Part shown: positions 25,461-40,412 of the stretch, piece after piece | Position numbering within the stretch: position 1 is the first letter of the stretch | How the letters are laid out: each line of letters starts with the position of its first letter | Virus record (IMG/VR): IMGVR_UViG_2541047852_000009 | Length of the DNA: 41,802 nt | From: a virus | Lineage: Duplodnaviria > Heunggongvirae > Uroviricota > Caudoviricetes | Direction: 5' to 3' (one strand) | The notes under the pieces: model-generated | Seen by the model: the letters and a program-made list of their open reading frames with translations, nothing else | The model's database searches: none | Told to the model about the DNA's origin: nothing | Made by a program: the position numbers and the translations under genes

Positions 25461-27431
25461 TCATGCCGCAGCATCCGCGTTGTTCACTTCCACCTTCACA
25501 CTGTCAATCAGCAGCGTATATGTCGCCGCCTTTGATATGCCTGTCAGTTGCAGTTTGTCCGCCGCCCCTGATGCCGGAGATTTCACCAGTGTGAACGGCG
25601 TCCCCCGTTTCTCATCCAGTACCGGCGTCACCTGAATGCTGTTGTTTCCGGCAAACTCAAAAGCCAGTGTGTGCCATCCGTTATCAAAGACCCCGAACGT
25701 ATCCAGCTTCGCATTCGGCTTCTTGTGGTGCATCGCGTTCAGGTTCGTCGCATCCGTCTGCAGGAAGAAGGACATCAGCATGTCGTTGCCTTCCTCTGCC
25801 AGCGTCACTCCCTCCGGCAGGGACGACAACTGCCAGTAAATGCCCAGGGCAAACTGATTCGGCACCAGTGAACCCGGCAACTTAAACCGTACGCTCACAC
25901 GTCCCCCCTTCTTCAGTAACTCCACTCCCTGTCCGGCTGCATCATGCTCCAGAAACCAGATGTGGTTTTCCGGTTTATTCAGTTGCAGGGCCTTACCTCC
26001 CGTAGCCCCCGCATCACTGACCACCGCTTCAGCAATGTTTTTGTTAACATTGTCTCCGCTCGCCGGTTTGTGATAATAGCGCCAGCCCTGTGATGCCAGG
26101 TCTTCGCCGGACGCCAGCAGACTCATCAGGGTTCGGTTACTGACCGGGGCTTCCGGCTCTCTCTCCGTACCTTCACCGGAAGGTCCGGTGGGCTTCACCG
26201 TATCAGGCTGTTTTCCGGTAATGAATTCAGCGTTTCTCCCGGCATGCACAAGAATCGCCGTTGCCAGACGGTCGGAAATAATCCCACGACGTGCCCATGA
26301 TCCAAAATGCGTTTTACGGTCAGCCGTCGTCCAGGTTTTGGCGTCCGTTCGACCACCGGCTCCGTAATACCCAATATCCGCAACATCCGGATCTTCTGAC
26401 GGCTCGTTGGTACCCACATTTCGCCCGTTTTCATCCGTCATAAACGGCACAAAGAAGATTTTTTTTGCGGATTTCGTCTTGTATGCACCATACACCGCAT
26501 CGTATTGCGAAGAATAAGTCTGCTTCCAGTAGTAGGTCGTGTCGCCACAAATCCAGGGAACTGATGACGGAGAGCCCCCGAGACACTGACCTCCGAATTC
26601 CGACAGGTCAGAACGATATTTTTCCACCATGGAATCAAACAGCCCCGGCTGAGTGGCGTATGCACCCTGTTTCAAATCAAACTCGCCCTGCATCCAGACC
26701 ACTGCAAGCAGAATATTTTTAGGGTTGGCCTTCAGTGCGGCCTGAGTACGGGTAAGCAGGTCCTTGTACAGTGGCTTATCTACACCCCAGCGTGCCGAGG
26801 TCTCGCTTGCGCCGGTGGATTCGCTGAAGGTACCTTCATCGCCCGCCAAAAATGCAGAACCACCACGGCAGCACGGAACCAGAAGAATACCGGCATTCGC
26901 CGGAATAAACGGCAACAATTTCTTCGCGATATGTAATCCCTGCCCCACGCATCCATACTGAGCTGCGCTGGCTTTCGGGTGTGAAAACTTACTCAAATCC
27001 TGAACATCATGCAGGCAGTGGTCCGCAGGAATAATGTCATTGTAGTTACAGGACGCACCACCCGGCGTGACAGTGCTGCGACGCGCCAGCTGTTTAATAC
27101 GCGGGTCCGGACGGTCATATGTCTCCGGCAGCGGAAGCCCTTCACCATACGCCATACCGTTTGACTGCCCGGCCAGGGCAACAACAAAGTAATACTCCGG
27201 GTTGCTGGTGGTGCTGATAACTGCGCCTTCTCCATCCGACGGCTTCACCACCACAGGTGTGGTGACATTACCTTCTGCGACAATCGCCTGAATAAGTGCT
27301 GCGCCATCATCCGTATACGAAGAAAACGGCCCGCCGTATGGTTGCCATCCTTCACGAATTTTTTGAGCAAGCGCATCCGCAAGGTCTGACGGCGATGCCG
27401 CCCTGACCACGTCATAGTGTTTAAATGCCAT
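25461..27431 (-). CDS. Prophage NanS-p-like sialate O-acetylesterase (DUF1737 N-terminus plus SGNH/esterase domain)
   Basis: 656 aa; position between the tRNA cluster and the holin is where 933W-type phages carry this gene; strong RBS GGAGGA. Confidence 0.7.
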   Translation of the reverse strand: MAFKHYDVVRAASPSDLADALAQKIREGWQPYGGPFSSYTDDGAALIQAIVAEGNVTTPVVVKPSDGEGAVISTTSNPEYYFVVALAGQSNGMAYGEGLPLPETYDRPDPRIKQLARRSTVTPGGASCNYNDIIPADHCLHDVQDLSKFSHPKASAAQYGCVGQGLHIAKKLLPFIPANAGILLVPCCRGGSAFLAGDEGTFSESTGASETSARWGVDKPLYKDLLTRTQAALKANPKNILLAVVWMQGEFDLKQGAYATQPGLFDSMVEKYRSDLSEFGGQCLGGSPSSVPWICGDTTYYWKQTYSSQYDAVYGAYKTKSAKKIFFVPFMTDENGRNVGTNEPSEDPDVADIGYYGAGGRTDAKTWTTADRKTHFGSWARRGIISDRLATAILVHAGRNAEFITGKQPDTVKPTGPSGEGTEREPEAPVSNRTLMSLLASGEDLASQGWRYYHKPASGDNVNKNIAEAVVSDAGATGGKALQLNKPENHIWFLEHDAAGQGVELLKKGGRVSVRFKLPGSLVPNQFALGIYWQLSSLPEGVTLAEEGNDMLMSFFLQTDATNLNAMHHKKPNAKLDTFGVFDNGWHTLAFEFAGNNSIQVTPVLDEKRGTPFTLVKSPASGAADKLQLTGISKAATYTLLIDSVKVEVNNADAAA

Positions 27432-27922
27432 GAATCCTCCCGGCCGGGATAATATTGTGAGTAAAATAAGGAGCGGGCTGAAGTCCGGAAGTTACAGGAC
27501 AATGGCAGAAGAGAGACGACAGCCCGCAATTCGAAAAAGGCCACGCAGTTGCGCAGCCTTATGAATTCTGGTTAAAATCCATTCGATTATAAAAATGTAT
27601 ATCTCATGCTGTTGCCCGAACCCACTCGGTTTTTTTTTGCCCACAAGAAAGCCCCTCCGGAGAGGGGCTAAAGCCGCGTATCTGTATCATCATGCACATG
27701 GTGCCGGGTGCCTCCCGGTGAGTTCAGTATCAGCACCTGAACCCGCACAGAAAGGATAAGGGTCGGTGACAAAACACCAGTCGCTGATTGCCCCTCCGCA
27801 CAGGGGGATTCACCATGCCAGTTTCTTTTAACAAACTCCCCGCAAAACAGACAACTGTCAACCGTCTGAATTGTGAGACATTTAAAAAAAAGCCCGCAAA
27901 AGCGAGCCGGGAAAAATAAGTC

Positions 27923-27999
27923 TGGCGCGTTGTACTGGATTCGAACCAGTGACCGATTGCTTAGAAGGCAATTGCTCTGTCCGGCTGAGCTAATAACGC
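27923..27999 (-). tRNA. tRNA-Arg (anticodon TCT), phage-encoded
   Basis: Hand-folded cloverleaf, 77 nt: anticodon loop cTTCTAa, T-loop TTCGAAT, 3' CCA encoded; one A-C mismatch in the acceptor stem. Confidence 0.75.
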
Positions 28000-28012
28000 A
28001 GGGTACAGATAA

Positions 28013-28089
28013 TGGACCGCCATCGAGGACTCGAACCCCGCGCAACCAGCTTCGAAGGCTGGCGCTCTATCCTGATGAGCTAATGGCGG
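28013..28089 (-). tRNA. tRNA-Arg-like (anticodon TCG by hand fold)
   Basis: 77 nt: acceptor ccgccat/atggcgg, anticodon stem ccagc/gctgg with loop cTTCGAa, T-loop TTCGAGT, CCA encoded; unusual C1 start. Confidence 0.6.
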
Positions 28090-28096
28090 TATGTGA

Positions 28097-28172
28097 TGGT
28101 GGCCCTTGCTGGATTTGAACCAGCGACCTAGCGATTATGAATCGCTCGCTCTCACCACTGAGCTAAAGGGCC
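28097..28172 (-). tRNA. tRNA-Ile2/Met (anticodon CAT), ileX/ileZ-like
   Basis: 76 nt: acceptor ggccctt/aagggcc, anticodon loop tTCATAa, T-loop TTCAAAT, CCA encoded; closely resembles E. coli tRNA-Ile(LAU). Confidence 0.8.
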
Positions 28173-29040: not shown

Positions 29041-30030
29041 TCAGGACAGCACACCAATCGCCAGCGCGCGATCGATAAAACGAAATATCAGCTCCAGTTG
29101 GGAACCATACTTCTCTTCAAATGCCACGGTATCCGCATGCAGTTCGTCATGGTGTTTTCTGCACAAAGGCAACACAAAAAGGTCATGCGCTTTTGTACCC
29201 ATTCCACCCTGACCATGACCAATCAGGTGATGAGGATCGTCGGCTGGCTTACCACAACATGCACACGGCTGCGTCTTAACCCAGCGCGTGTACTTTTCAT
29301 TAACCCAGCGACGACGTTTTGGGCGTAACATAAAAGACTCCGGCGACTCCGGATCCACTTTCAGCGCCAGCACCTTTTTCGCCTTATCCTGGATGATGCT
29401 GGTGGCAGTAACCGAAGGCACAAGGTCACTTTCCCGGGTGACAGACGGCACAACAGGCTTCGGTAATCTCAGTGCCTTACGGGCTGCACTTTCCGGTAAG
29501 GCATCCGCCAGGTCATTACGAATCAGCCACCAGCACAGTTCCGGCATTGTCACAACGTGACTGTCATCAAAACCAAGATCACAGCGCACAACAGATAACA
29601 CCCAGCGGGCACAGTTATCCGTTGCCATTGATTCCAGCCGTTCCGTGAACTGGTCACGGAGAAGATTGTCACAGTGCCAGCACAGACGGATTGCGCCTGG
29701 CGCGTGCCGCATTGTGGTCATGTTCTCGCTGTGCCAGTCGGAATGAGGCCACTGACAGCCCTTTTCACGAAGTAACCAGCTCTCAAGGCATTCCACGCCA
29801 CCAGCACGACGGATCACCGCCTCATGGCGGAACACGGCCCGAACGGCAGGATCATCCGCCAGCGGTTGTGATGCTGCCGGAACGGCACCACTGGCAAAAG
29901 ATGAATAACGTTCCGGCTCAGGCTCCAGCAGGACACGCCCCTGCATAAACAGGGGCATCAGCTCTGAACCGGGTCTGAACAAGACGATCCCCATACGCGG
30001 GGCTATTTCAGGGGTCAGCAGTGCTCTCAA
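29041..30030 (-). CDS. DUF968-type protein (Cys/His-rich C-terminal domain)
   Basis: 329 aa; C-terminus CACCGK...HHLIGHGQGGMGTKAHD...CRKHHDELH; found upstream of Q in lambdoid phages. Confidence 0.55.
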   Translation of the reverse strand: MRALLTPEIAPRMGIVLFRPGSELMPLFMQGRVLLEPEPERYSSFASGAVPAASQPLADDPAVRAVFRHEAVIRRAGGVECLESWLLREKGCQWPHSDWHSENMTTMRHAPGAIRLCWHCDNLLRDQFTERLESMATDNCARWVLSVVRCDLGFDDSHVVTMPELCWWLIRNDLADALPESAARKALRLPKPVVPSVTRESDLVPSVTATSIIQDKAKKVLALKVDPESPESFMLRPKRRRWVNEKYTRWVKTQPCACCGKPADDPHHLIGHGQGGMGTKAHDLFVLPLCRKHHDELHADTVAFEEKYGSQLELIFRFIDRALAIGVLS

Positions 30031-30039
30031 CGTAGAACC

Positions 30040-30555
30040 TCACAGCACAATCTGTTTCAGTTTCTGTACCGCTTTCCCCATATCCGCCATAGCATCAACA
30101 AACTCATCAAATTTACGACTTGCCATTCCATACGCCTGGAGGATTTCCAGTTTCAGAGGATCCAGTTGCTTTTTAATTTCCGCACGATCATTAAATTTCT
30201 TCTCTGCTTCTTCCGCAGCCCTGATCAGCTCCTCAGCATGCCTGCGTAATTCATCCGGAGTAACGGTCTTTTTAATCACAACGGGTTCCTCTGTTTTTAC
30301 TGGTATTTCACTATTTACTGCCTGATGTCCAAATTTAGGATGATGTAACGTTGTAGTTCTTCCATCATTCGCAACGACCAGAAGTCCACTGTCGCGGATA
30401 ATGCCAATGAGTATCTCCTTATCCCTTTTATTCAGTAGACTGTACGCCTGCACTTTCTGTGATATCTGGGTCAGTGTTGCGCCTTCCGGCATTCGTTCAA
30501 CAAAACGTTTAACCCTGGATAAAACTGGCTGCAGATGGGGTGGTGTAATTCTCAT
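30040..30555 (-). CDS. Hypothetical protein (N-terminal wHTH-like, C-terminal coiled coil)
   Basis: 171-aa ORF; composition only. Confidence 0.4.
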   Translation of the reverse strand: MRITPPHLQPVLSRVKRFVERMPEGATLTQISQKVQAYSLLNKRDKEILIGIIRDSGLLVVANDGRTTTLHHPKFGHQAVNSEIPVKTEEPVVIKKTVTPDELRRHAEELIRAAEEAEKKFNDRAEIKKQLDPLKLEILQAYGMASRKFDEFVDAMADMGKAVQKLKQIVL

Positions 30556-30570
30556 GCTCCACGCCTCCCA

Positions 30571-31368
30571 TCAGTGAACGGTATCGAGCAGCTTTAACAG
30601 CTCAGGGAATCGGGATTCGAAGAAATGCGGCTGCGTCTCGCGCGGATTTGCAGGACTGGTGATGTTCTTGCCGAACATGCAGCCTTTCGCCGTCAGCGAC
30701 CAGAATTTTTTGATGTTGTTAATCCCGGTACGGCTGTATCGTTCGCGCTGCTCGACGATCCCCAGCTTCACCATCTGGTGATATGCCTGATTAGCCGTCA
30801 GGCGGATACCATACTGCTTCAGCAGTGCACTCAGTGACAGCGTAGGGCGACTTGAGCCATCGGGTGCATCGGCAGGAGCATCAATGGCATAGCGCGGTGC
30901 CAGATTCGGTAAGCCAACAGCCTCCTGGAGTTTCTGACAGGCACCAAGCACAGATGAGTTAGACAGGTTTAACTCCCGACGCATAAAGTCCAGCAGAATC
31001 ACACCAGCCTGCATCTTGTCAGCAGCCTGCCCGGATAATTTTTCCGGTGCGCTGGTTACCGTATCGAAAGTACGGATCACCTTCAGATGGAATGACGGAC
31101 TGATCCACATTGCATAGGCATACACCAGTTCTTTGCAGACATACGTCCCCTGGTTATTTCCGCCACGAATAACGTTAACTGGCTCTATATTGACCGAGTT
31201 GCAAATCTGCAACTCGCTTATTAAATGTTCAGTTTGCTCATTGCGGAGCCAGAATGCAGGCTTATGCTTATCCAGAGAACCGGCAGCCCTGTGAAGATCG
31301 TTCAGGCTGTAACGACCATAAGCATCACGACGAACTTCAATACCATCAATGACCATCAGATTATTCAT
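30571..31368 (-). CDS. KilA-N domain protein (antirepressor-like)
   Basis: N-terminus MNNLMVIDGIEVRRDAYGRYSLNDLHRAAG...KPAFWL typical of the KilA-N domain. Confidence 0.6.
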   Translation of the reverse strand: MNNLMVIDGIEVRRDAYGRYSLNDLHRAAGSLDKHKPAFWLRNEQTEHLISELQICNSVNIEPVNVIRGGNNQGTYVCKELVYAYAMWISPSFHLKVIRTFDTVTSAPEKLSGQAADKMQAGVILLDFMRRELNLSNSSVLGACQKLQEAVGLPNLAPRYAIDAPADAPDGSSRPTLSLSALLKQYGIRLTANQAYHQMVKLGIVEQRERYSRTGINNIKKFWSLTAKGCMFGKNITSPANPRETQPHFFESRFPELLKLLDTVH

Positions 31369-31387
31369 ACTTCGTTTCTCCTCTTAA

Positions 31388-31777
31388 TCAGGCGGCTGCA
31401 CCCGCCGGTTTCTCATACTTACTGATAGTGATCTCGACCTTCCCTTTCGGGATAACCGGTCCCCACTCAACCAGCATTCTTTTCACCTGACTGTCGTCCT
31501 CCCACACACCCGCGTGGGTCAGGGCGTCAAACAGCGCCTTGTTATAGTTGTCCAGATCGCGGATCCGGTTATCCGGAGGAAACAACACGATCTCCACTGA
31601 AGCAGGTGCCGACGTTGGTTTTGGCAGACGACGTAACTGCTCAACTATTGCTGCACACGCCGCGCTCTGGAATTTTCGCCCCGCCGCGCTTATCAGGCTC
31701 TTACCAGCAAACGCCCCTTTGTTGGGGTGTCGCCAGTACGTGTTCACGCTGGGCGGGAAAGGCAGGATCAGCTTCAT
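31388..31777 (-). CDS. rusA: Holliday-junction resolvase RusA
   Basis: 129 aa; PPSVNTYWRH and DLDNYNKALFDALTHAGVWEDDSQV resemble the RusA family. Confidence 0.75.
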   Translation of the reverse strand: MKLILPFPPSVNTYWRHPNKGAFAGKSLISAAGRKFQSAACAAIVEQLRRLPKPTSAPASVEIVLFPPDNRIRDLDNYNKALFDALTHAGVWEDDSQVKRMLVEWGPVIPKGKVEITISKYEKPAGAAA

Positions 31778-32100
31778 ACTTTCAGGCCTCTCTCATGTAA
31801 CCAGTGAGTTGCACACAGCCTTGCGTTTTCCTCACCGGCAAGCAGTGAGCGGATAATCCCGACCGCCTCGCTGTCGTCGTCCTTCACCGCGGTATGAAGC
31901 GTGATCCCCCGGGCCACACCACGCTTTATCGTGATGACGCCTTTTTTCTCCAGTGCGCGAAGATGCTCCACCGCTGCATTCACCGAACGGTATCCCAGCA
32001 TGGTTGCCACCTCCTGATTGGTTGGCGGGAAGCCACGTTCTTTCTGATAAGAAATCAGCATATCCAGCACCTGCTGCTGGCATTGAGTTAACGTCGTCAT
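31774..32100 (-). CDS. LexA-type DNA-binding domain protein lacking the S24 autopeptidase domain
   Basis: 108 aa; clear similarity to the LexA N-terminal wHTH (LT..QQ.V.D.I......G.PPT..E.A..LG.RS.NAA.EHL.AL..KGVI.I..G..RGI.L); no Ala-Gly cleavage site or Ser/Lys dyad region. Confidence 0.55.
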   Translation of the reverse strand: MTTLTQCQQQVLDMLISYQKERGFPPTNQEVATMLGYRSVNAAVEHLRALEKKGVITIKRGVARGITLHTAVKDDDSEAVGIIRSLLAGEENARLCATHWLHERGLKV

Positions 32101-32750
32101 GCCGCCATCTCCCTGACCAGTTTTTCCGCCTGCTGGCGAACCTGCGCCAGAAACGCCTCACCACATGCCTCAAGTTCATCGCGCCCGATGTAGCTGATTG
32201 CCGGTCCCTTCCAGGTCTTGTCGAAAACAGCAATAGCACCAGCGAAGAAAGCGCCTGTCGGCACCTGCTTCTCATCCTTCGGGATAAACCAGGCAGGCAG
32301 TTCAAAACCAATACGCCCGCGAATAAAAGCAATATGATCTGCATCTTCCGGCCACCACACTTCGCTGGTGGCAGCTTTGATCAGGAAAACATAGCGCCCG
32401 CCTTTATCACGCATGGCACTGGCATGCTTCATGATGTAACGCATGCCGGTGATGTATTGCCCCTCATGCTGACTGGCGCGGCTGTATGGGGGATTACCAA
32501 AGGCAGCACCTTTAAGCTCCGCAAGGCGTTCTGACCAGTCATGCGCCAACGCGTTGTCTTCCGCCGTGTAATACGCAGCACATTTGGCGTTATCACCGTC
32601 AGTAAACAGATCCAGAACAAACGGGCCAAACAGAGTGTTAATTCCCCAGAAAATGTTGTCCGGCGTGCGCCACTGATCGCCCGCTTCCTTCAGTTCATGG
32701 GCTGGTTTGTTCCGCAGTTCCGCCAGCGCCTGGCAATATTTATTACTCAT
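32097..32750 (-). CDS. Phage N6-adenine DNA methyltransferase (orphan)
   Basis: Catalytic motif FGNPPYS; start ATG 32750 overlaps the upstream stop (TAATG); the listed ORF has an 11-aa N-terminal extension. Confidence 0.7.
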   Translation of the reverse strand: MSNKYCQALAELRNKPAHELKEAGDQWRTPDNIFWGINTLFGPFVLDLFTDGDNAKCAAYYTAEDNALAHDWSERLAELKGAAFGNPPYSRASQHEGQYITGMRYIMKHASAMRDKGGRYVFLIKAATSEVWWPEDADHIAFIRGRIGFELPAWFIPKDEKQVPTGAFFAGAIAVFDKTWKGPAISYIGRDELEACGEAFLAQVRQQAEKLVREMAA

Positions 32751-33244
32751 TAAGCCCCCACGTAATTCCCTGAGAGATACCACTCTTCACCTGATGCAGC
32801 CCGCTTACTGCTTTTCCGTAAACACCGTTCACGACGCGCCAGAAAATTGTTTCGTTCTGGCTGGGAGTGGCTTTCACGGAATGCCGCCATCCACACCGTT
32901 GCAGCACGACGGTATAAGCCCCTGGACTCCAGTTCTTCCGCCTGGCGGGTCAGGCACAAAATCACCCGCGGGTCGTTAGTGCCGACATAGAAATTGCGCA
33001 CAGGTCTGGTTTCACGAACTGGTTGTGGTTCCGGATCCTGCGCTCTCTCAGTCAGGCGTGGGAAATGTCTGCGTGTATCTCCTTCACAACGGTGAGCCAC
33101 ACGCCCACTCTGACGTAACTTGCTTGCTGACTGCAGAACGCGCTGCCGTGAGTAACCAGCAAAAGCATCCGCAATGTCTCCGGAAGTACACCCCGGATGG
33201 GCTTCAATGAATTTCTGAACGTCATTCAAAAGACTCATGCTCAC
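32750..33244 (-). CDS. PerC-like transcriptional regulator (tentative)
   Basis: C-terminal AEELESRGLYRRAATVWMAAF resembles the PerC/Pch signature as recalled. Confidence 0.35.
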   Translation of the reverse strand: MSMSLLNDVQKFIEAHPGCTSGDIADAFAGYSRQRVLQSASKLRQSGRVAHRCEGDTRRHFPRLTERAQDPEPQPVRETRPVRNFYVGTNDPRVILCLTRQAEELESRGLYRRAATVWMAAFRESHSQPERNNFLARRERCLRKSSKRAASGEEWYLSGNYVGA

Positions 33245-34236
33245 CCCCTGAATCCTGCCGGGATCTGGCTGTAGTCCACGTTGTCGTAACTGGCTTTGAA
33301 GTACGGGTCCTCGCGTCTGACTGCAGATACCGCAGGAACTTCCCAGGATTCTTCGAAATGACGATCCGGACCAAAGAACGTCGACGCCTGCTTCACGAAC
33401 TGGGTACCGGTATTTCCAGAGACACGCACCCAGGCGGCATAGCGTTTCACACCGTCGAGCATGGTTTCGGGTGTCACACCTTCCCTGATTCGGGCTTTCC
33501 AGGCTTTAAAAGCGGCGGATTTTGAATTACCACCAGCACGTTTGGGATATTCCTGCCAGGCCTGTTCAAATTCCGGTGAATATTCCTGTCTGGCAGAACG
33601 CGCTGGTGCAGACGCGTCAGCGGATGCGCCAATAGTGTTTTTAGTCTCCGTTGTAATCTCTGTAGTAATCTCTGTAGTAATCTCTGTATTTGTATCAACA
33701 TTCGGCGTATCCCCTGTTCCGTTATGACGTCGGGGGGTGTTCCGTTTTAACGTAATAGCTGTATCGCTGATTGCATTATTGCTGTTACTTTCTGGCGAAA
33801 CAGAAGAAGGTGTGGTGATGGCCGCAATTGCCTGTGGGTTGATCCCGACAAACAAAATATTGCTGCATTTCACCCCATCGAGCATTTCCACCGTGCGTAA
33901 ATCCAGAGTAATAAACCCTGCATCGCGCAGACGCTTCAGCGCATCTGCGGTTTCCCTTTTCCCGAAACCAAACTGCTCAGCAAACGCCTGGTAGCTTCTT
34001 TGCAGTTTGTCGCCCTGAAAACGCTTGCGATATCCCAGCAACGCTCCGGTGTGCTCATCCCTGACCTCTGTCGGGCGGTACCAGTAAACGATCTCTGAAA
34101 GCAGAGCGATAGCCGTCGCATCCGGACGCCCACTGGGTAGTCGAATATATTTCCACCAGGTCGCAGGTGTAACATTGCCGGAAATATTAATTTGACCAAT
34201 AGCCATAACTTCCGGTGTGGGGGCGTAACGGCTCAT
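33241..34236 (-). CDS. Replication initiation protein, O-like (replisome organiser), with internal origin iterons
   Basis: 331 aa; central EITT x4 repeat encoded by tandem 12-bp DNA repeats; C-terminal domain typical of phage replication proteins. Confidence 0.6.
   Translation of the reverse strand: MSRYAPTPEVMAIGQINISGNVTPATWWKYIRLPSGRPDATAIALLSEIVYWYRPTEVRDEHTGALLGYRKRFQGDKLQRSYQAFAEQFGFGKRETADALKRLRDAGFITLDLRTVEMLDGVKCSNILFVGINPQAIAAITTPSSVSPESNSNNAISDTAITLKRNTPRRHNGTGDTPNVDTNTEITTEITTEITTETKNTIGASADASAPARSARQEYSPEFEQAWQEYPKRAGGNSKSAAFKAWKARIREGVTPETMLDGVKRYAAWVRVSGNTGTQFVKQASTFFGPDRHFEESWEVPAVSAVRREDPYFKASYDNVDYSQIPAGFRG
33661..33696. repeat. Three perfect tandem copies of GTAATCTCTGTA inside the O-like gene (candidate ori iterons)
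   Basis: Direct reading: gtaatctctgta x3, preceded by a partial copy and followed by an AT-richer stretch. Confidence 0.55.
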
Positions 34237-34532
34237 ACAACCTCCTTCCGCAGCATGAGAATTGTGTAGCCACGCGCAGGTTGTAGTCTGGCTTTTGCAT
34301 CAATAGTAAGCGTTGCAATTTTTCGGATATGAAGATAACCAGCTCTTTCCAGTGCCAGGGTTTCCCTGAATATCGCTTGCTTAGAACAACAGCAGAAATC
34401 AGCAAGCACCTGATGATCAATAACTCTCTCGCCTTCACCGTCTGAAGAACCCGACATCAAAACACGCAACATAATCAGGCGCTGAATCGGGTTATCGAAA
34501 GCACATCCGCACACAAACTGAAAACAGTTCAC
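34233..34532 (-). CDS. Hypothetical protein (possible wHTH)
   Basis: 99-aa ORF with 4-nt overlaps to both neighbours. Confidence 0.35.
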   Translation of the reverse strand: MNCFQFVCGCAFDNPIQRLIMLRVLMSGSSDGEGERVIDHQVLADFCCCSKQAIFRETLALERAGYLHIRKIATLTIDAKARLQPARGYTILMLRKEVV

Positions 34533-34765
34533 GCCACACCTCCCAGACGCTTAAACATTTTTCCGGAGCAAAAGGCTATAAGCGGCATACTGACGCGGTA
34601 ATTACGGCCCAGCGGTTCACAAACCACCTTCTGACATTCACGGTCAACCAGGCTAACACGTAGAACATGCCCTGCAGGCGTGGTGTACCACTGCCCAACT
34701 GTAGGAATTGATGTTTTTTTACGCTGAAGAAAACGGCAAATATTGAGAATCAACGGATTAAGCAT
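34529..34765 (-). CDS. Hypothetical protein
   Basis: 78-aa ORF, translationally coupled within the early-right operon. Confidence 0.35.
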   Translation of the reverse strand: MLNPLILNICRFLQRKKTSIPTVGQWYTTPAGHVLRVSLVDRECQKVVCEPLGRNYRVSMPLIAFCSGKMFKRLGGVA

Positions 34766-35594
34766 GACGATGCCCTCCGCTGATATTAAGGAGACGGTGA
34801 ATATGAAAATTAGCCTTATCCGCCAGACGAATACGTTCAGCCTGCAAGTTAAGAAGGGTTTCTACCAGAACCTGATGTGCCTGCGGATCCGAAAGAGTTA
34901 CCTTGCGCAGAGCACGTAGTGCAGTTGTTACATAACTGAGTTTATGTAAGTCGTCATCATTCAGACGAGAGAGGGCTGGGACAGTAGCCATGATGGCAGC
35001 CTCCGTATGCAATGGATAACTTCCACCACCGGAAACGCCAATTTCGCTGGTGGTGAACTGAGCAGGGTTGGCGTAACCGGCGCATACGGAAACCGGCGCA
35101 CCTTTCGGTGCCCCCACCCAGCCCACCATAATTTGGGTATAGCTGAGTTGTAGCAACAAAAAAGACGCTAACGCGCCAATTGTCGCCGTATGCAATTCCA
35201 GGACGCCAATCCCGGCACCCGCTTTATAAGGTGCCTGAACAGTGTAACGTCCCGGAATGGCAGAATCAATGTGCTGGTGGTCCTTCACACTCAACAAAAT
35301 CACGCCTGAATTTCCACAAAGGACTAAAGCACTCATGCGGGTAGTCTTTGCGAAGATAGATAACGCGCTGTGTTTCTGGCTCCCAACGAATAACATGGAC
35401 ATAAAGCCCTCTTCCGTCACGAAACCAGCGGTTAAGTTCCTGCACAACTCGCCCCCCACAGTCAGGTAAAGTTCTCTGTGGTTACTTACAGCCAGGTGAT
35501 TTGGTAATCTGCATTCATGCCGTAACAACAGGTGTTCAGCGACACTGACCACCAGCTGTTGCGACAAACGATTATTTGCCGTTAAACTGTTCAT
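34758..35594 (-). CDS. Conserved prophage protein (YdaU-like, tentative)
   Basis: 278-aa ORF directly downstream of the cII/YdaT-like gene, the position YdaU holds in Rac; no recognisable motif. Confidence 0.35.
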   Translation of the reverse strand: MNSLTANNRLSQQLVVSVAEHLLLRHECRLPNHLAVSNHRELYLTVGGELCRNLTAGFVTEEGFMSMLFVGSQKHSALSIFAKTTRMSALVLCGNSGVILLSVKDHQHIDSAIPGRYTVQAPYKAGAGIGVLELHTATIGALASFLLLQLSYTQIMVGWVGAPKGAPVSVCAGYANPAQFTTSEIGVSGGGSYPLHTEAAIMATVPALSRLNDDDLHKLSYVTTALRALRKVTLSDPQAHQVLVETLLNLQAERIRLADKANFHIHRLLNISGGHRHA

Positions 35595-36154
35595 GCGTTA
35601 GTTTCTCCACAGACACAAAACGCCACGACGCCCGGAGCTGCACACTCGCGGGCGTCACTCTTTTCTGGAGCGCAAAAGATTTTGTAGACCAGTGCTGCAT
35701 GCTCCTGGAGCTTCGAAATTGACAGATACAACTCATCATTAATTGCTGTCTGCTCGTGTGGCTCCACTACCCCATCTTCGATTGCCGAACGAATCTGCTT
35801 TGAGTAACTCCCGATCTGTTCGATGACTTCCAGCAGGCGCTGGTTTATATCGGCGTTCTCTACTTCCTCAATTTCAGGAAGCGATACAAACACCCCACCA
35901 GCAGACTGTGCGACAGCATCCGCAATGTAGTGAGTGCCAGCCGCGCGCTGTAAAATCATTGCCCATCCCAGCGGGAAAATCTGATCGCCATCTGCACGAA
36001 GGCGGTTGAATAAAGCGTTCTCTGTTACATCCAGCCACTCAGCAGCTTCAGCGTACCCCCCCGGCAACGCCGCGATAGTTTTTCTGACAGCTTTCACGTA
36101 CCACTCAGGCTGTTTTTCTACTTTCCAGTGATGCTTACCCACGGTTAGCCTCAT
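35591..36154 (-). CDS. cII-like / YdaT-like regulatory protein (tentative)
   Basis: 187-aa ORF immediately downstream of cro; positional analogue of cII. Confidence 0.35.
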   Translation of the reverse strand: MRLTVGKHHWKVEKQPEWYVKAVRKTIAALPGGYAEAAEWLDVTENALFNRLRADGDQIFPLGWAMILQRAAGTHYIADAVAQSAGGVFVSLPEIEEVENADINQRLLEVIEQIGSYSKQIRSAIEDGVVEPHEQTAINDELYLSISKLQEHAALVYKIFCAPEKSDARECAAPGVVAFCVCGETNA

Positions 36155-36185
36155 CGTTCTGTGGTTAAAAATTGAAGGTGTTCTG

Positions 36186-36386
36186 TTAATCTTTCGGATA
36201 GATATCCGGTCTTAAGTCAGATTTCGTAATTGCACCTGACGTGCATTGCTCAAGTTTTTTAGCCAGCACAAAACTGGCTTTTTTATAACCATTGAAAACC
36301 AGCCGTAAGTAGCCTGGTGTTGAGCCAACTTTTCCGGCCAACTCGCCCTGCTGTTCTTTGGTTAAAGAGTCCCAATACGCTTTCAT
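36186..36386 (-). CDS. cro: Cro-like HTH repressor (YdaS-like)
   Basis: 66 aa from ATG 36386 (MKAYWDSLTKEQQGELAGKVGSTPGYL...); divergent from cI; the listed ORF start at 36410 would cover an operator palindrome. Confidence 0.6.
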   Translation of the reverse strand: MKAYWDSLTKEQQGELAGKVGSTPGYLRLVFNGYKKASFVLAKKLEQCTSGAITKSDLRPDIYPKD

Positions 36387-36402
36387 ACAATATGTACCTC
36401 CG

Positions 36403-36460
36403 ATGTACATATTACATGATTAAAATGAACCTTCAAGATACTTGTACCTTAACGGTACAA
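36403..36460. promoter_or_regulatory. Immunity-region operators and divergent promoters
   Basis: Palindromes ATGTAcatatTACAT (36403-36417) and TTGTACCttaacGGTACAA (36442-36460) between the cro and cI starts; outer inverted repeat AATGAA...TTCATT. Confidence 0.45.
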
Positions 36461-36476
36461 GGGTTTTAATTTCATT

Positions 36477-37151
36477 ATGAAAACAGTCCATGACATCCGG
36501 CGGTCTAACGCCAGAAAACTGAGAGATGGTGTTGGCGGGAATTCTTCCTTTGCCACCATGATTGATCGCGAGCCAACCCAGACCAGCAGGTTTATGGGAG
36601 ATGGTGCTACTAAAAATATCGGTGACAGCATGGCACGGCACATCGAAAAATGTTTCGACCTGCCTGTCGGATGGCTTGATCAAGAACACCAGACAACAAA
36701 CATCACAAAAAAACCTGATGTTTCAATTACTAACAAACAAATAACGTTAGTCCCTGTCATATCATGGGTACAGGCCGGAGCATGGAAAGAAGTTGGCTAT
36801 TCTGAGGTTGATTTGAGCACAGCAGAAACTTATCCCTGCCCTGTACCCTGTGGCGAAATGACTTATATCTTGCGGGTGATTGGTGATTCAATGATTGATG
36901 AGTACCGCCCGGGAGACATGATTTTTGTAGATCCTGAAGTCCCTGCCTGCCACGGTGACGACGTTATTGCATTGATGCACGATACAGGCGAAACCACCTT
37001 TAAGCGGTTGATAGAAGATGGAACACAGCGTTACCTCAAAGCATTAAACCCAAACTGGCCTGAACCTTACATTAAGATCAACGGTAATTGCTCTATAATT
37101 GGTACAGTAATTTTCTCAGGAAAACCAAGAAGATACAAAATAAAGGCCTAA
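36477..37151 (+). CDS. cI: cI-type repressor (N-terminal HTH, C-terminal S24 LexA-like autopeptidase)
   Basis: 224 aa; Ala-Gly cleavage site in VQAGAW; catalytic Ser in GDSM and Lys in TFKRL. Confidence 0.85.
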   Translation: MKTVHDIRRSNARKLRDGVGGNSSFATMIDREPTQTSRFMGDGATKNIGDSMARHIEKCFDLPVGWLDQEHQTTNITKKPDVSITNKQITLVPVISWVQAGAWKEVGYSEVDLSTAETYPCPVPCGEMTYILRVIGDSMIDEYRPGDMIFVDPEVPACHGDDVIALMHDTGETTFKRLIEDGTQRYLKALNPNWPEPYIKINGNCSIIGTVIFSGKPRRYKIKA

Positions 37152-37162
37152 TCAATATTTAT

Positions 37163-37186
37163 AACCTGCTTCGGCAGGTTTTTTTA
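37163..37186 (+). terminator. Rho-independent terminator after cI
   Basis: cctgc ttcg gcagg followed by TTTTTTT. Confidence 0.6.
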
Positions 37187-37189
37187 TAC

Positions 37190-37222
37190 TTGACAATGTA
37201 CCCTTGAGATACATAATGTATC
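37190..37222 (+). promoter_or_regulatory. Early-left (pL-analogue) promoter with overlapping operator palindrome
   Basis: Consensus -35 TTGACA (37190-37195), 16-nt spacer, -10 CATAAT (37212-37217); perfect palindrome GATACATAATGTATC (37208-37222) over the -10. Confidence 0.5.
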
Positions 37223-37223
37223 T

Positions 37224-37700
37224 AAAAGAAACATGTCACAGGCAAGATTAAACAAAATTTGGTTGTAACACGGCGTATGGCACATGCGTCGTTAGCGGTC
37301 TGGGGACGTTAAAGGGGACAATCCACTCCTTGCTCGGGCAAACAAACCAGGTAGCCGGAATGTGCAAGTCAATGATGATGCTGATAAGACGCCTAACCAG
37401 CGTGGCGGTTCGGTTTGACACCTGGGAAGAGACCAGGGTGCAACGATGAGGGCATTTATGGAACCGCGACAAAGTGTGGTGCCGTAACTGGCTAAGTGCT
37501 CTCAGCGTTGTGGTGAATGCGCAGGCTGATGCGCGAAAGACATTGCAGCTATTGCGGAAAAGAGCTGTTCGGCGGGGCAATTAAACGCCCGTGAGAGTCT
37601 GAAATAACCGCAAGCCGGAGATCAGCACCGGTCACCACAACAGCCACTGCTTTGGCGGTACCAGTTTGTACACTTGCTTCCGGCTGGTACCGCTCTTTTT
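37224..37700 (+). ncRNA. Candidate long untranslated leader / ncRNA (~480 nt) ending at an internal intrinsic terminator
   Basis: No plausible ORF on either strand; extensive inverted repeats; ends at the terminator 37655-37700. Confidence 0.3.
37655..37700 (+). terminator. Strong intrinsic terminator inside the early-left leader
   Basis: Perfect 10-bp inverted repeat GCGGTACCAG (37655-37664) / CTGGTACCGC (37684-37693), 19-nt loop, then TCTTTTT. Confidence 0.55.
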
Positions 37701-37837
37701 ACAAAACAGAGAAGAGCATCACCGGACGACGGGCTCATAACCCAATCCATCCGGGCGGCTGCCACCGCAGGTGTTCTTCTCTGTTTTGTGGAGAAACTAA
37801 CCGACCTTACAGGGTCGATATGATGAGGAGCAGCAAA

Positions 37838-38200
37838 ATGGCTAGCGAACGCAGTACTGATGTGCAGGCATTTATCGGGGAGCTGGACGGCGGCGTATTT
37901 GAAACCAAAATCGGCGCAGTTCTCAGTGAAGTCGCTTCCGGTGTGATGAACACGAAAACCAAAGGTAAGGTCTCACTCAACCTGGAAATCGAACCATTTG
38001 ATGAGAACCGTGTGAAAATCAAACACAAACTCTCATATGTTCGCCCGACTAACCGCGGGAAAATTTCCGAAGAAGACACCACCGAAACGCCGATGTATGT
38101 CAATCGCGGTGGTCGCCTGACTATTCTGCAGGAAGACCAGGGACAATTACTGACTCTTGCCGGTGAACCTGACGGAAAACTCCGCGCAGCAGGTCATTAA
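37838..38200 (+). CDS. YfdP-like early protein
   Basis: 120 aa from ATG 37838 with GAGGAG RBS; first gene of the early-left operon; resembles the CPS-53/KplE1 yfdP position. Confidence 0.55.
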   Translation: MASERSTDVQAFIGELDGGVFETKIGAVLSEVASGVMNTKTKGKVSLNLEIEPFDENRVKIKHKLSYVRPTNRGKISEEDTTETPMYVNRGGRLTILQEDQGQLLTLAGEPDGKLRAAGH

Positions 38201-38265
38201 TATCGTTCTTAATTAACTGATTATTTATCTCATCACTGAATATCTTTATATAGTGAGGACTTATT

Positions 38266-39090
38266 ATGTCTCAGAACTTAGACGCAACCGCAATTAATCA
38301 AATCCATGCCCTTATTTCTGCTCAGGGTGTTAATGAAATTATCAGTAAGATTGGTGCCGATGCTGTGGCATTGCCTGAGAATTTCCGCATTCATGATCTG
38401 GAAAAATTTAATTTAAATCGCTTCCGTTTCCGTGGTGCGCTTTCCACTGCCAGCATCGATGACTTTACCCGTTATTCTAAAGATCTTGCAGATGAAGGCA
38501 CCCGCTGCTTTATCGATGCTGATAATATGCGAGCCGTCAGTGTGCTTAACCTAGGTACTATTGATGAACCAGGTCACGCAGATAACACCGCCACTCTCAA
38601 ACTGAAAAAGACAGCACCGTTCTCTGCCCTGTTGTCTGTTAACGGCGAGCGTAACTCCCAGAAGTCACTGGCAGAATGGATTGAAGACTGGGCCGACTAC
38701 CTTGTGGGCTTTGATGCTAATGGTGACGCCATTCAGGCAACAAAAGCGGCTGCGGCGGTCCGTAAAATCACGATTGAAGCAAACCAGACCGCTGATTTTG
38801 AAGACAATGACTTCAGCGGCAAACGCTCTCTGATGGAGTCTGTCGAAGCGAAAACCAAAGACATTATGCCAGTAGCATTTGAGTTTAAATGCGTTCCGTT
38901 TGAAGGCCTGAAAGAACGTCCGTTTAAATTACGCCTCAGCATTATCACTGGTGATCGCCCTGTACTGGTTCTGCGCATTATTCAGCTGGAAGCAGTACAG
39001 GAAGAAATGGCTAACGAATTTCGTGATCTGCTTGTTGAAAAATTCAAAGACAGCAAAGTAGAAACCTTTATTGGTACTTTCACCGCCTGA
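38266..39090 (+). CDS. YfdQ-like protein (DUF2303-type)
   Basis: 274 aa; good RBS (GTGAGGA); size and order match the yfdP-Q-R-S-T cluster of E. coli cryptic prophage CPS-53 as recalled. Confidence 0.55.
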
Positions 39091-39217
39091 TTTCATTACT
39101 GCAAATGCCCCTGCGGGGGCATTTATGGAAACGTAATTAACTCAATAATCGCCTGATGGCGAGGGTTTTCTTTAACCAAAATTCAGCGCGGTGCAGCGCA
39201 TATACGTGGAGAACAAA

Positions 39218-39754
39218 ATGTCATTTATTAAAACTTTTTCCGGGAAGCATTTTTATTATGACAGGATAAATAAAGACGACATCGATATTAACGATATCGC
39301 GGTTTCCCTTTCAAATATCTGTCGCTTTGCCGGTCATCTTTCGCACTTCTACAGCGTCGCCCAACATGCGGTTCTTTGCAGCCAGTTGGTGCCGCAGGAA
39401 TTTGCTTTTGAAGCGTTAATGCATGATGCAACAGAAGCGTATTGCCAGGACATTCCCGCACCACTGAAACGCCTTCTTCCTGACTATAAACAAATGGAAG
39501 AAAAAATAGACGCCGTAATCCGTGAGAAATACGGGTTACCCCCAGTTATGAGTACGCCCGTGAAATATGCCGATCTCATCATGCTGGCAACCGAACGCCG
39601 CGATCTCGGGCTTGATGATGGCTCTTTCTGGCCTGTACTGGAAGGTATCCCGGCAACAGAGATGTTCAACGTGATTCCACTGGCACCGGGCCATGCCTAC
39701 GGGATGTTTATGGAACGCTTTAACGAGTTATCGGAGTTACGCAAATGCGCATGA
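39218..39754 (+). CDS. HD-domain phosphohydrolase (YfdR-like 5'-deoxynucleotidase)
   Basis: HD signature (H...HD: VAQHAV ... LMHDATEAY); start ATG 39218 with GGAG RBS. Confidence 0.7.
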   Translation: MSFIKTFSGKHFYYDRINKDDIDINDIAVSLSNICRFAGHLSHFYSVAQHAVLCSQLVPQEFAFEALMHDATEAYCQDIPAPLKRLLPDYKQMEEKIDAVIREKYGLPPVMSTPVKYADLIMLATERRDLGLDDGSFWPVLEGIPATEMFNVIPLAPGHAYGMFMERFNELSELRKCA

Positions 39755-40107
39755 ATGTTTTCGAAATGGAAGGGTTTCTTCGTGGGAGATGTGTACCGCG
39801 AGATCTGAAAGTAAATGAAACAGATGCTGAATACCTGGTGCGTAAATTCGATGCGCTTGAAGCTAAATGTGCAGCACAGGAAAACAAAGTAATACCAGTG
39901 TCAACTGAACTGCCACCAGCAAATGAAAGTGTTTTGTTATTCGATGCTAACGGAGAAGGCTGGCTAATTGGCTGGCGTTCTCTCTGGTACACCTGGGGAC
40001 AAAAAGAAACCGGAGAATGGCAGTGGACATTTCAGGTCGGGGACCTTGAAAACGTCAATATCACTCACTGGGCAGTAATGCCAAAAGCACCGGAGGCTGG
40101 AGCATAA
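39745..40107 (+). CDS. YfdS-like protein (DUF551-type)
   Basis: 120 aa; start overlaps the stop of the HD-domain gene. Confidence 0.5.
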   Translation: MRMNVFEMEGFLRGRCVPRDLKVNETDAEYLVRKFDALEAKCAAQENKVIPVSTELPPANESVLLFDANGEGWLIGWRSLWYTWGQKETGEWQWTFQVGDLENVNITHWAVMPKAPEAGA

Positions 40108-40412
40108 TGACCACTTTTACCGACAAAGAACTGATTAAAGAAATTAAAGAGCGTATCAGCAGCCTTGACGTGCGAGACGATATTGAGCGCCGTGCTTATG
40201 AAATCGCACTCCTATCTCTGGAAGTAGAACCAGATGAACGCGAATCTTATGAATTATTCATGGAAAAGCGTTTCGGTAACTTAGTAGATCGTCGGAGAGC
40301 AAAAAACGGCGATAACGAATACATGGCATGGGATATGACTCTCGGTTGGATCGTCTGGCAGCAACGAGCTGGTATCCATTTTTCAACAATGTCACAGCAA
40401 GAGGTGAAATAA
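40107..40412 (+). CDS. YfdT-like protein
   Basis: 101 aa; start overlaps the upstream stop; stop overlaps the xis start. Confidence 0.5.
   Translation: MTTFTDKELIKEIKERISSLDVRDDIERRAYEIALLSLEVEPDERESYELFMEKRFGNLVDRRRAKNGDNEYMAWDMTLGWIVWQQRAGIHFSTMSQQEVK

Follow-up and report, generated by a model that had tools for sequence, protein, structure and literature searches.

GIL01 gp6, a truncated homologue of LexA, recognises a palindrome of its own and activates a late promoter (PMC6182141). VT2-Sa Dam (M.EcoVT2Dam) belongs to the phage methyltransferase family PF05869 and is reported to target GATC. Among the regulators of the PerC/Pch type, PchA-C activate ler, and the longer or divergent enterohaemorrhagic E. 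coli (EHEC) homologues PchD and PchE do not activate the locus of enterocyte effacement (LEE). In this study, a locus carrying relatives of all three was analysed in the IMG/VR virus record IMGVR_UViG_2541047852_000009 (Caudoviricetes), a stretch of 41,802 nucleotides (nt) that is called the window hereafter. The locus consists of a PerC-family gene, an N6-adenine methyltransferase gene and a gene for a LexA-like protein of 108 amino acids (aa), followed by a RusA gene. The same four genes stand in the same order in phage SfV (orf40, dam, orf42 and orf43) at 96-97% protein identity, and the SfV authors listed orf40 and orf42 as 'unknown'. A functional study of the enterobacterial LexA-like protein was not found in the literature, where GIL01 gp6, the Pch papers and a YfdM/SW1 preprint were the only related matches. 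Judged from its sequence, the LexA-like protein is a phage-encoded truncated LexA homologue beside ordinary orphan methyltransferase and PerC-family genes. The three genes are as follows:

31774..32100, minus strand: LexA-like protein (PF01726; TIGR00498, partial; PHROG 362; AlphaFold2 model; Foldseek)
32097..32750, minus strand: N6-adenine methyltransferase, 217 aa (PF05869, TIGR01712)
32750..33244, minus strand: PerC-family protein (PF06069, PHROG 1324)

A preliminary description of this DNA had placed three coupled genes at 31774-33244, and this holds. They lie on the minus strand, and as read from the sequence, the PerC-like and methyltransferase genes join in TAATG, and the methyltransferase and LexA-like genes in ATGA. 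The domain calls of that description were borne out by profile searches, which returned PF06069 (PerC) with 36.1 bits against a cut-off of 22.6 in the C-terminal half of the PerC-like protein (residues 98-149), PF05869 with 154.9 bits against a cut-off of 28.1, and PF01726 (LexA_DNA_bind) with 69 bits over residues 1-65 of the LexA-like protein. It was also right that the LexA-like protein lacks the autocleavage domain and that the methyltransferase is an orphan with an NPPY motif.

Materials and methods

Domain content, gene order, coupling, distribution and neighbourhood statistics are shown by the sequence analysis. A set of 259 loci with LexA-like homologues was used for the neighbourhoods, and the neighbouring genes were classified by script. 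The set falls into four clades: the window's own clade, 97-99% identical to the window protein, and the P0129 (about 45%), P0123 (about 47%) and P0140 (about 40%) clades. SOS boxes were scored with a consensus position-specific scoring matrix (PSSM), in which a score expresses the match to the consensus only.

The LexA-like protein

The S24 peptidase domain (PF00717) was not detected in the 108-aa protein by the Pfam search. Against the LexA equivalog TIGR00498 the protein scored 70.7 bits, under the cut-off of 110.95, and covered model positions 1-91 only. It showed 43% identity to residues 1-86 of E. coli LexA, its best PDB relatives by sequence were LexA entries, and it matched phrog_362 of the PHROGs database ('transcriptional repressor', profile length 106) end to end. 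An AlphaFold2 model built on 16 family members reached a mean predicted local distance difference test score (pLDDT) of 84. In this model, residues 1-69 form a winged helix-turn-helix with helices at 6-22, 28-35 and 40-52 and a beta-hairpin wing at 56-68; a low-confidence linker (71-75) leads to a helical hairpin made of helices 74-88 and 93-103 (pLDDT 88-90). The top Foldseek match of the model was the LexA-DNA complex 3JSO, with a root-mean-square deviation (rmsd) of 0.9 A over 68 residues in the winged helix-turn-helix.

The residues by which E. coli LexA contacts DNA are Ser39, Asn41, Ala42, Glu44 and Glu45 (PMC3091678). Four of the five are kept in the phage protein (S39, N41, A42 and E45) and the fifth is changed (E44V); across the short family, S39 is invariant and N41 nearly so. 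The wing is well conserved; it is the element held responsible for the fixed spacing of LexA sites. An exhaustive HMMER search returned homologues of similar length at 40-52% identity that share the tail ...EAVxIIRALLAGEENARxRAxxWLxERG..., with A97 and L101 invariant in the homologues of 40-50% identity. By these alignments the protein belongs to a genuine family made of a LexA N-terminal domain and a helical hairpin, and the hairpin may stand in for the LexA dimerisation domain.

The chain stops at residue 108, and Ser119 and Lys156 are therefore absent. BLAST paired residues 79-90 (VGIIRSLLAGE) with the region of the LexA cleavage site (VGRVAAGE), so that the AG at 88-89 aligns with Ala84-Gly85, the LexA cleavage site; the relatives have VG, AN, RE or other pairs here. 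Since the AG pair is not conserved in relatives and Ser119 and Lys156 are missing, the likeness to the cleavage site was taken as ancestry rather than function. The possibility that the protein is a decoy cleaved in trans by another S24 protease was rejected as a conserved feature, the AG pair being lost in homologues.

In RefSeq the product of 31774-32100 (WP_021524668.1) is named 'LexA repressor', and other records have 'LexA family transcriptional regulator'. The former name is misleading for the 108-aa protein, because the TIGR00498 score lies under the cut-off and the S24 domain is lacking, and such a label on a domain-only protein can mislead genome-based counts of lexA copies. The homologues P0034, P0056, P0070 and P0111 contain frameshifts or are fused with methyltransferase or RusA frames, and the gene is decaying in some prophages.

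SOS boxes and SOS-related neighbours

When CTGT-Nx-ACAG palindromes were counted at spacings from 0 to 14 in the 259 loci, only x=8 was enriched, with 122 sites of 31 distinct sequences vs 4-14 distinct sequences at other spacings. Many of these N8 palindromes are textbook SOS boxes (e.g. TACTGTATATATATACAGTA), and they concentrate in the P0140 clade (Klebsiella, Enterobacter and Buttiauxella), where 26/35 loci have a good SOS box in the 1.5 kb ahead of the LexA-like gene. At locus L089 (4530-5408), an SOS box overlaps the -10 element of a sigma-70-like promoter (TTGCAA-17-TAATAAT) just after a terminator-like hairpin, and this promoter reads into an 82-aa open reading frame (ORF) and then the LexA-like gene. 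Among the genes under the boxes of this clade are a homologue of DinI (PF06183, 76.7 bits) and a complete RecA (PF00154, 434 bits). In at least one lineage, the LexA-like gene thus appears to be SOS-controlled, like lexA, and accompanied by other SOS modulators. Such SOS-controlled distant homologues support, and do not prove, an SOS-related function of the LexA-like protein.

Further details of these loci were recorded. In L089, L236, L238, L250 and L253, a sigma-70 promoter of this kind, which LexA could repress, leads into a conserved 82-85-aa ORF of unknown family, then the LexA-like gene and a conserved 67-aa ORF. Just upstream of the LexA-like unit, L253 has a full-length RecA paralogue whose two SOS boxes overlap, and DinI is likewise upstream in loci of the P0140 clade. 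A 109-aa neighbour in L250 opens with GFPSPA like UmuD'; it had no Pfam match, and no identity is claimed for it. A single-protein contig scan with P0140 returned mostly the LexA of Vibrio and Photobacterium hosts.

Five close relatives of the window carry the SOS box TACTGTATTTATGAACAGTG between RusA and the KilA-N gene (L029, about 6114-6133; L067, 4765-4784), which suggests that the KilA-N gene behind it is a LexA-controlled gene of the antirepressor type. No SOS box stands in front of the window's own KilA-N gene (30571-31368). The window contains three exact CTGT-N8-ACAG sites vs 0.57 expected, with poor spacers, and one of them is the only such site in the early region:

35476-35491: weak CTGT-N8-ACAG site, CTGTGGTTACTTACAG (minus strand CTGTAAGTAACCACAG)

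A gap of 145 nt separates ymfL from DUF4222, and the site falls within it, about 30 nt before DUF4222 begins; 34 related loci have kept it. Its spacer fits the SOS consensus poorly, and it may be either a candidate operator or a chance occurrence.

Distribution and gene neighbourhoods

Of 5426 complete E. coli genomes, 2233 contain the LexA-like gene (nucleotide identity of at least 90%), in up to four copies each, and 2120 contain the methyltransferase gene (1725 of them at 80% or higher coverage). The gene set also occurs in SfII, mEp460, the cdtI phage, 1720a-02, many Stx2c phages and some Stx2a phages (95-99% identity). In the K-12 cryptic prophage CPS-53 (yfdO-yfdN-yfdM), the C-terminus of the methyltransferase, the LexA-like gene and RusA have been lost. 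The gene set is thus widespread and already catalogued in databases.

RusA was the most frequent neighbour. Its start lies no more than 30 nt from the LexA-like stop in 79/81 loci of the own clade, 82/84 of the P0129 clade (the other two being truncated) and 37/56 of the P0123 clade, usually with an ATGA overlap even at 45% identity, and it follows immediately in 198/221 loci of these three clades together. In 18 loci of the P0123 clade, an unrelated gene is inserted between the two. Within the P0140 clade RusA lies within 300 nt in 11/35 loci, and the 24/35 without detectable RusA have the 67-aa ORF and DUF968 instead.

The upstream side was more variable. Of about 81 close relatives, 20-26 have no methyltransferase, and PerC then borders directly on the LexA-like gene, an arrangement also found in SfIV and 2H10. 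None of the P0129 loci (0/84) has either PerC or the methyltransferase; here a replication protein or a 75-aa ORF precedes the LexA-like gene. The P0123 clade keeps the order of the trio, with a short PerC (78 aa), a PF05869 methyltransferase (393 aa) and the LexA-like gene. When all clades are taken together, a DNA methyltransferase directly precedes the LexA-like gene in 119 of the 206 assignable loci, a striking recurrence that involves at least five unrelated families (PF05869, PF00145, PF01555, PF05063 and PF02086). The methyltransferases in this slot at loci L003, L088-L091 and L092-L261 include C5+D12 and PAPS-reductase+D12 fusions and are usually translationally coupled to the LexA-like gene. 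VT2-Sakai has no LexA-like gene, yet its nin region contains a PF05869 methyltransferase; on this comparison, a general 'methyltransferase slot' is therefore the simpler reading.

The three genes are separable mosaic accessory cassettes, and RusA is the most constant partner of the LexA-like gene. Their variable presence among relatives agrees with the statement of the preliminary description that they are not core phage functions. Its view of the trio as a dedicated coupled unit does not stand, given that the methyltransferase is absent from roughly a quarter of the close relatives and both it and PerC from a whole sister clade, RusA is the constant neighbour and the overlaps run on into the replication gene and RusA. 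The proposed host-regulation or epigenetic module survives in part: the canonical SOS-box promoter of a sister clade, beside DinI and RecA paralogues, fits an SOS-related role, and the dedicated unit has to be given up. Regulation of the host by the lysogen is not indicated for this prophage, in which no promoter for lysogenic expression was found.

Methyltransferase and PerC-like protein

The methyltransferase matched NCBIfam TIGR01712 ('phage N-6-adenine-methyltransferase') over its full length with 253.5 bits (cut-off 97.05), and its NPPY catalytic motif is intact (...AAFGNPPYSRAS...; GAAFGNPPYSRAS). Residues 1-89 are 98% identical to the truncated K-12 YfdM, which is reported to support growth of a T1-like phage. 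A restriction enzyme was neither annotated nor detectable anywhere in the prophage, the neighbours being the PerC-like, LexA-like, RusA and replication genes. PF05869 was found in 537 phage records, among them those of lytic Chi-like and T1-like phages. With the PF05869 enzyme of the VT2-Sakai nin region the window enzyme shares only 31% identity, and the GATC specificity is therefore not transferable to it. It is a typical orphan PF05869 member, and by analogy its default, most likely role is the self-protection of phage DNA.

The PerC-like gene may start at GTG 33244 (164 aa) or ATG 33238 (162 aa) and ends at 32750. Its product is 99% identical to the uncharacterised YfdN of CPS-53, matches PHROG 1324 and has a sub-threshold match to the ANR family. 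The type of strain that hosts the prophage is not known to have LEE. PDB relatives by sequence were found neither for this protein nor for the methyltransferase.

Prophage setting and early operon

The window (41.8 kb) is a lambdoid prophage with genes largely on the minus strand. A prophage of E. coli HS13-1 is 99.9% identical to it over 7.5 kb and is integrated beside tRNA-Arg (argU) and folD. The order of the early region in RefSeq is ymfK (CI-type repressor with an S24 peptidase domain), ymfT (cro-like) and ymfL (cII-like); DUF4222, ash, two small ORFs and a replication protein; 'PerC family transcriptional regulator', 'phage N-6-adenine-methyltransferase' and 'LexA repressor'; RusA, a KilA-N protein, a hypothetical protein, DUF968 and antiterminator Q; and three tRNAs with a NanS-p-type esterase. 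The neighbours of the trio that matter here are the following:

30571..31368, minus strand: KilA-N domain protein (PF04383, 92.8 bits)
31388..31777, minus strand: RusA-family Holliday-junction resolvase (PF05866, 56 bits)
33241..34236, minus strand: replication initiation protein (PHROG 270 'replication initiation protein', E=7e-77)
36477..37151, plus strand: YmfK-type CI repressor (PF00717, 92.8 bits; RefSeq annotation ymfK)

By its domain content, YmfK is the genuine cleavable LexA-family repressor of the prophage. The KilA-N gene starts 19 nt after RusA and fills a slot that holds antirepressor-type genes in relatives.

The overlaps continue on both sides of the trio. The LexA-like gene and RusA share an ATGA, the stop of the replication gene overlaps or abuts the PerC-like start (GTGA/TGAgcATG), and the run of overlapping genes spans at least 34532 to 31388. 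Such tight overlaps are the ordinary packing of an early-right operon and are not peculiar to the trio. A promoter and terminator scan of 30000-37500 gave no excess of sites over shuffled sequence, and with the unbroken overlaps this assigns the trio to a long early-right transcript. An internal promoter for expression in the lysogen was considered and rejected, as the scan found no excess of promoter-like sites. The promoter that the SfV authors predicted inside orf40 is weak in the window's sequence.

Several other features of the prophage were noted. The 278-aa ORF of the mechanical ORF list (34758-35594) is no gene; RefSeq and Pfam support an Ash-family protein (34758-35303), DUF4222 (35266-35445) and an intergenic gap. 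At 25461-28172, tRNA-Met, tRNA-Arg(tcg) and tRNA-Arg(tct) are directly followed by a 656-aa DUF1737+SASA+DUF6645 esterase (NanS-p type), which is the arrangement of Shiga toxin (Stx) phages without stx genes in between. Between Q and the tRNAs, the RefSeq record also places the truncated pseudogene of a site-specific methyltransferase. The left arm (37800-40412) contains homologues of yfdP, yfdQ, yfdR, yfdS and yfdT of K-12 CPS-53. This marks the window as an intact relative of the early region of CPS-53, at another attachment site. YfdR is reported as a DnaA binder and overexpression of yfdQRST as inhibiting replication initiation (PMC4776307).

Proposed role and alternative explanations

The explanation that we favour, tentatively, is that the 108-aa protein binds LexA-type operators as an uncleavable dimer and re-represses SOS promoters of the host or of rival elements. 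Once the YmfK repressor is inactivated, pR transcription (delayed-early, nin-region) would start, and the transcript would provide the replication proteins, the YfdN-like PerC, the methyltransferase, the LexA-like protein, RusA and the products of the downstream genes. The LexA-derived protein keeps the winged helix-turn-helix and the recognition helix and has the short conserved hairpin in place of the dimerising and self-cleaving S24 domain; it would be a sequence-specific DNA binder that is dimeric via the hairpin. Because it has no S24 domain, RecA* could not inactivate it. During lytic development or DNA damage, the LexA-like protein would occupy LexA-type operators containing CTGT and renew the repression of SOS-controlled promoters, whether these belong to the host or to co-resident prophages. 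The methyltransferase would methylate replicating phage DNA, and host DNA incidentally, and would guard the phage against restriction as other orphan PF05869 phage methyltransferases do; PerC/YfdN would be a small regulator. The DNA target, the dimerisation, the repression and the methylation specificity in this scheme are what we infer. The stronger proposal, that a hairpin-dimerised, uncleavable LexA mimic re-occupies SOS boxes while RecA* is active, damps the SOS response and silences rivals, is doubtful.

Several observations weigh against the favoured explanation. The protein departs from LexA at E44V, R28N and R7C; the LexA N-terminal domain by itself binds DNA weakly, and dimerisation through the tail is again something that we infer. 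A canonical SOS box is absent from the window (best PSSM score 11.9, where real boxes score 18 or more and shuffled sequences reach a mean maximum of about 11), so that any SOS-box targets must lie elsewhere in the host. The association with an SOS-box promoter is confined to the P0140 clade and was found at 0/220 loci of the other three clades. Between clades (31388-32750 compared with L003-L007), the LexA-like protein retains 45-49% identity while its flanks stay at 75-78% (methyltransferase 78%, RusA 75-77%). This pattern suggests either fast evolution or allelic replacement of the middle gene, and it suits a phage-specific specificity determinant better than a reader of a conserved host site. 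In addition, the only truncated LexA homologue of a phage to have been studied, gp6, binds GaCACAnnTGTGaC and switches on the late promoter P3. The LexA-like protein could accordingly be a phage-specific transcription factor like gp6, with a private operator and no effect on the host SOS response, switching a phage promoter on or off, for instance to time an antirepressor, DUF968/Q or late genes; the precedent, the divergence between conserved flanks, the lack of a canonical SOS box in the window and the one conserved weak site in the early intergenic gap (35476-35491) would all fit. Set against this are the retention of four of the five LexA base contacts, the lack of any conserved palindrome besides the N8 spacing among the 259 loci, the control of late genes by the Q antiterminator in these phages and the position of the gene inside a gap-free operon without an adjacent regulatory region of its own, and we consider a private regulator unlikely.

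The constancy of RusA downstream, maintained even where the LexA-like proteins are only 45% identical, would suit an accessory role in recombination or repair, in which the protein binds DNA as a partner of RusA and targets or regulates the resolvase. This reading is improbable, since 24/35 loci of the P0140 clade lack a detectable RusA downstream, unrelated insertions separate the two genes in the P0123 clade, RusA acts alone in E. coli, and a LexA-type recognition helix argues for sequence-specific operator binding. A link with the methyltransferases, through expression control of the C-protein kind or by countering the SOS induction that foreign methylation triggers via Mrr/McrBC, is suggested by the unrelated methyltransferase families in the upstream slot and by the recurrence of the PerC-methyltransferase-LexA-like trio in the P0123 clade at about 47% identity. 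Foreign methylases reportedly induce SOS in E. coli, a finding said to go back to Heitman & Model in 1987. If this link were true, the 'epigenetic module' of the preliminary description would be real. We nevertheless hold it to be very improbable: the P0129 loci and many close relatives do without a methyltransferase, and the nin region of VT2-Sakai has a PF05869 methyltransferase without the LexA-like gene.

Implications

LexA cleavage is the switch for the SOS response, prophage induction and Shiga-toxin release. If the favoured explanation is true, a widespread and uncleavable phage binder of LexA operators would be an unrecognised brake on that switch, and its presence in Stx2c phages could help explain differences in inducibility between phage types. 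Prophages in about 40% of E. coli genomes, Stx2c phages among them, carry the putative LexA mimic; after induction of its own phage it would cut the SOS response short or damp it, and it would keep SOS-induced functions of rival elements silent, LexA-controlled antirepressors and bacteriocins included. In Klebsiella/Enterobacter prophages, the version driven by an SOS box would, together with DinI, amount to a damage-induced negative feedback. If the mimic also buffers SOS caused by foreign methylation, the recurrent upstream methyltransferase would be explained. Should the protein be a private phage regulator or a RusA helper instead, the locus would represent ordinary nin-region mosaicism. 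The high prevalence in E. coli, Stx phages included, the retained recognition helix and the SOS-box-driven homologues by DinI and RecA lift the locus above the routine.

Comparison with known systems

GIL01 gp6 of a Bacillus thuringiensis tectivirus (Fornelos et al. 2018, PMC6182141), the nearest analogue that has been studied, is likewise phage-encoded, early-expressed and without the cleavage domain. Unlike gp6, the LexA-like protein has an extra conserved C-terminal hairpin, four of the five E. coli LexA contacts, a location in a lambdoid nin region and late genes controlled by Q, and it is an acquisition in Gram-negative phages independent of gp6. With E. coli LexA (PDB 3JSO, 1JHH) it shares the N-terminal winged helix-turn-helix (43-50% identical, 0.9 A), S39, N41, A42, E45 and the wing. 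It differs from E. coli LexA in having no S24 domain, Ser119, Lys156, conserved Ala-Gly site or LexA dimer interface, and in lying in a phage operon with no SOS box upstream in the window. The orf40-dam-orf42-orf43 segment of SfV has the same genes and order as the window. The PF05869 phage Dam (VT2-Sa M.EcoVT2Dam) shares with the window methyltransferase the Pfam family, the NPPY motif, the nin-region location and the absence of a restriction partner. PerC/Pch of enteropathogenic E. coli (EPEC) and EHEC have in common with the window protein a PF06069 match above the gathering threshold and a prophage-borne gene (PMC6265319); unlike them, the window protein is twice as long and has an extra N-terminal domain.

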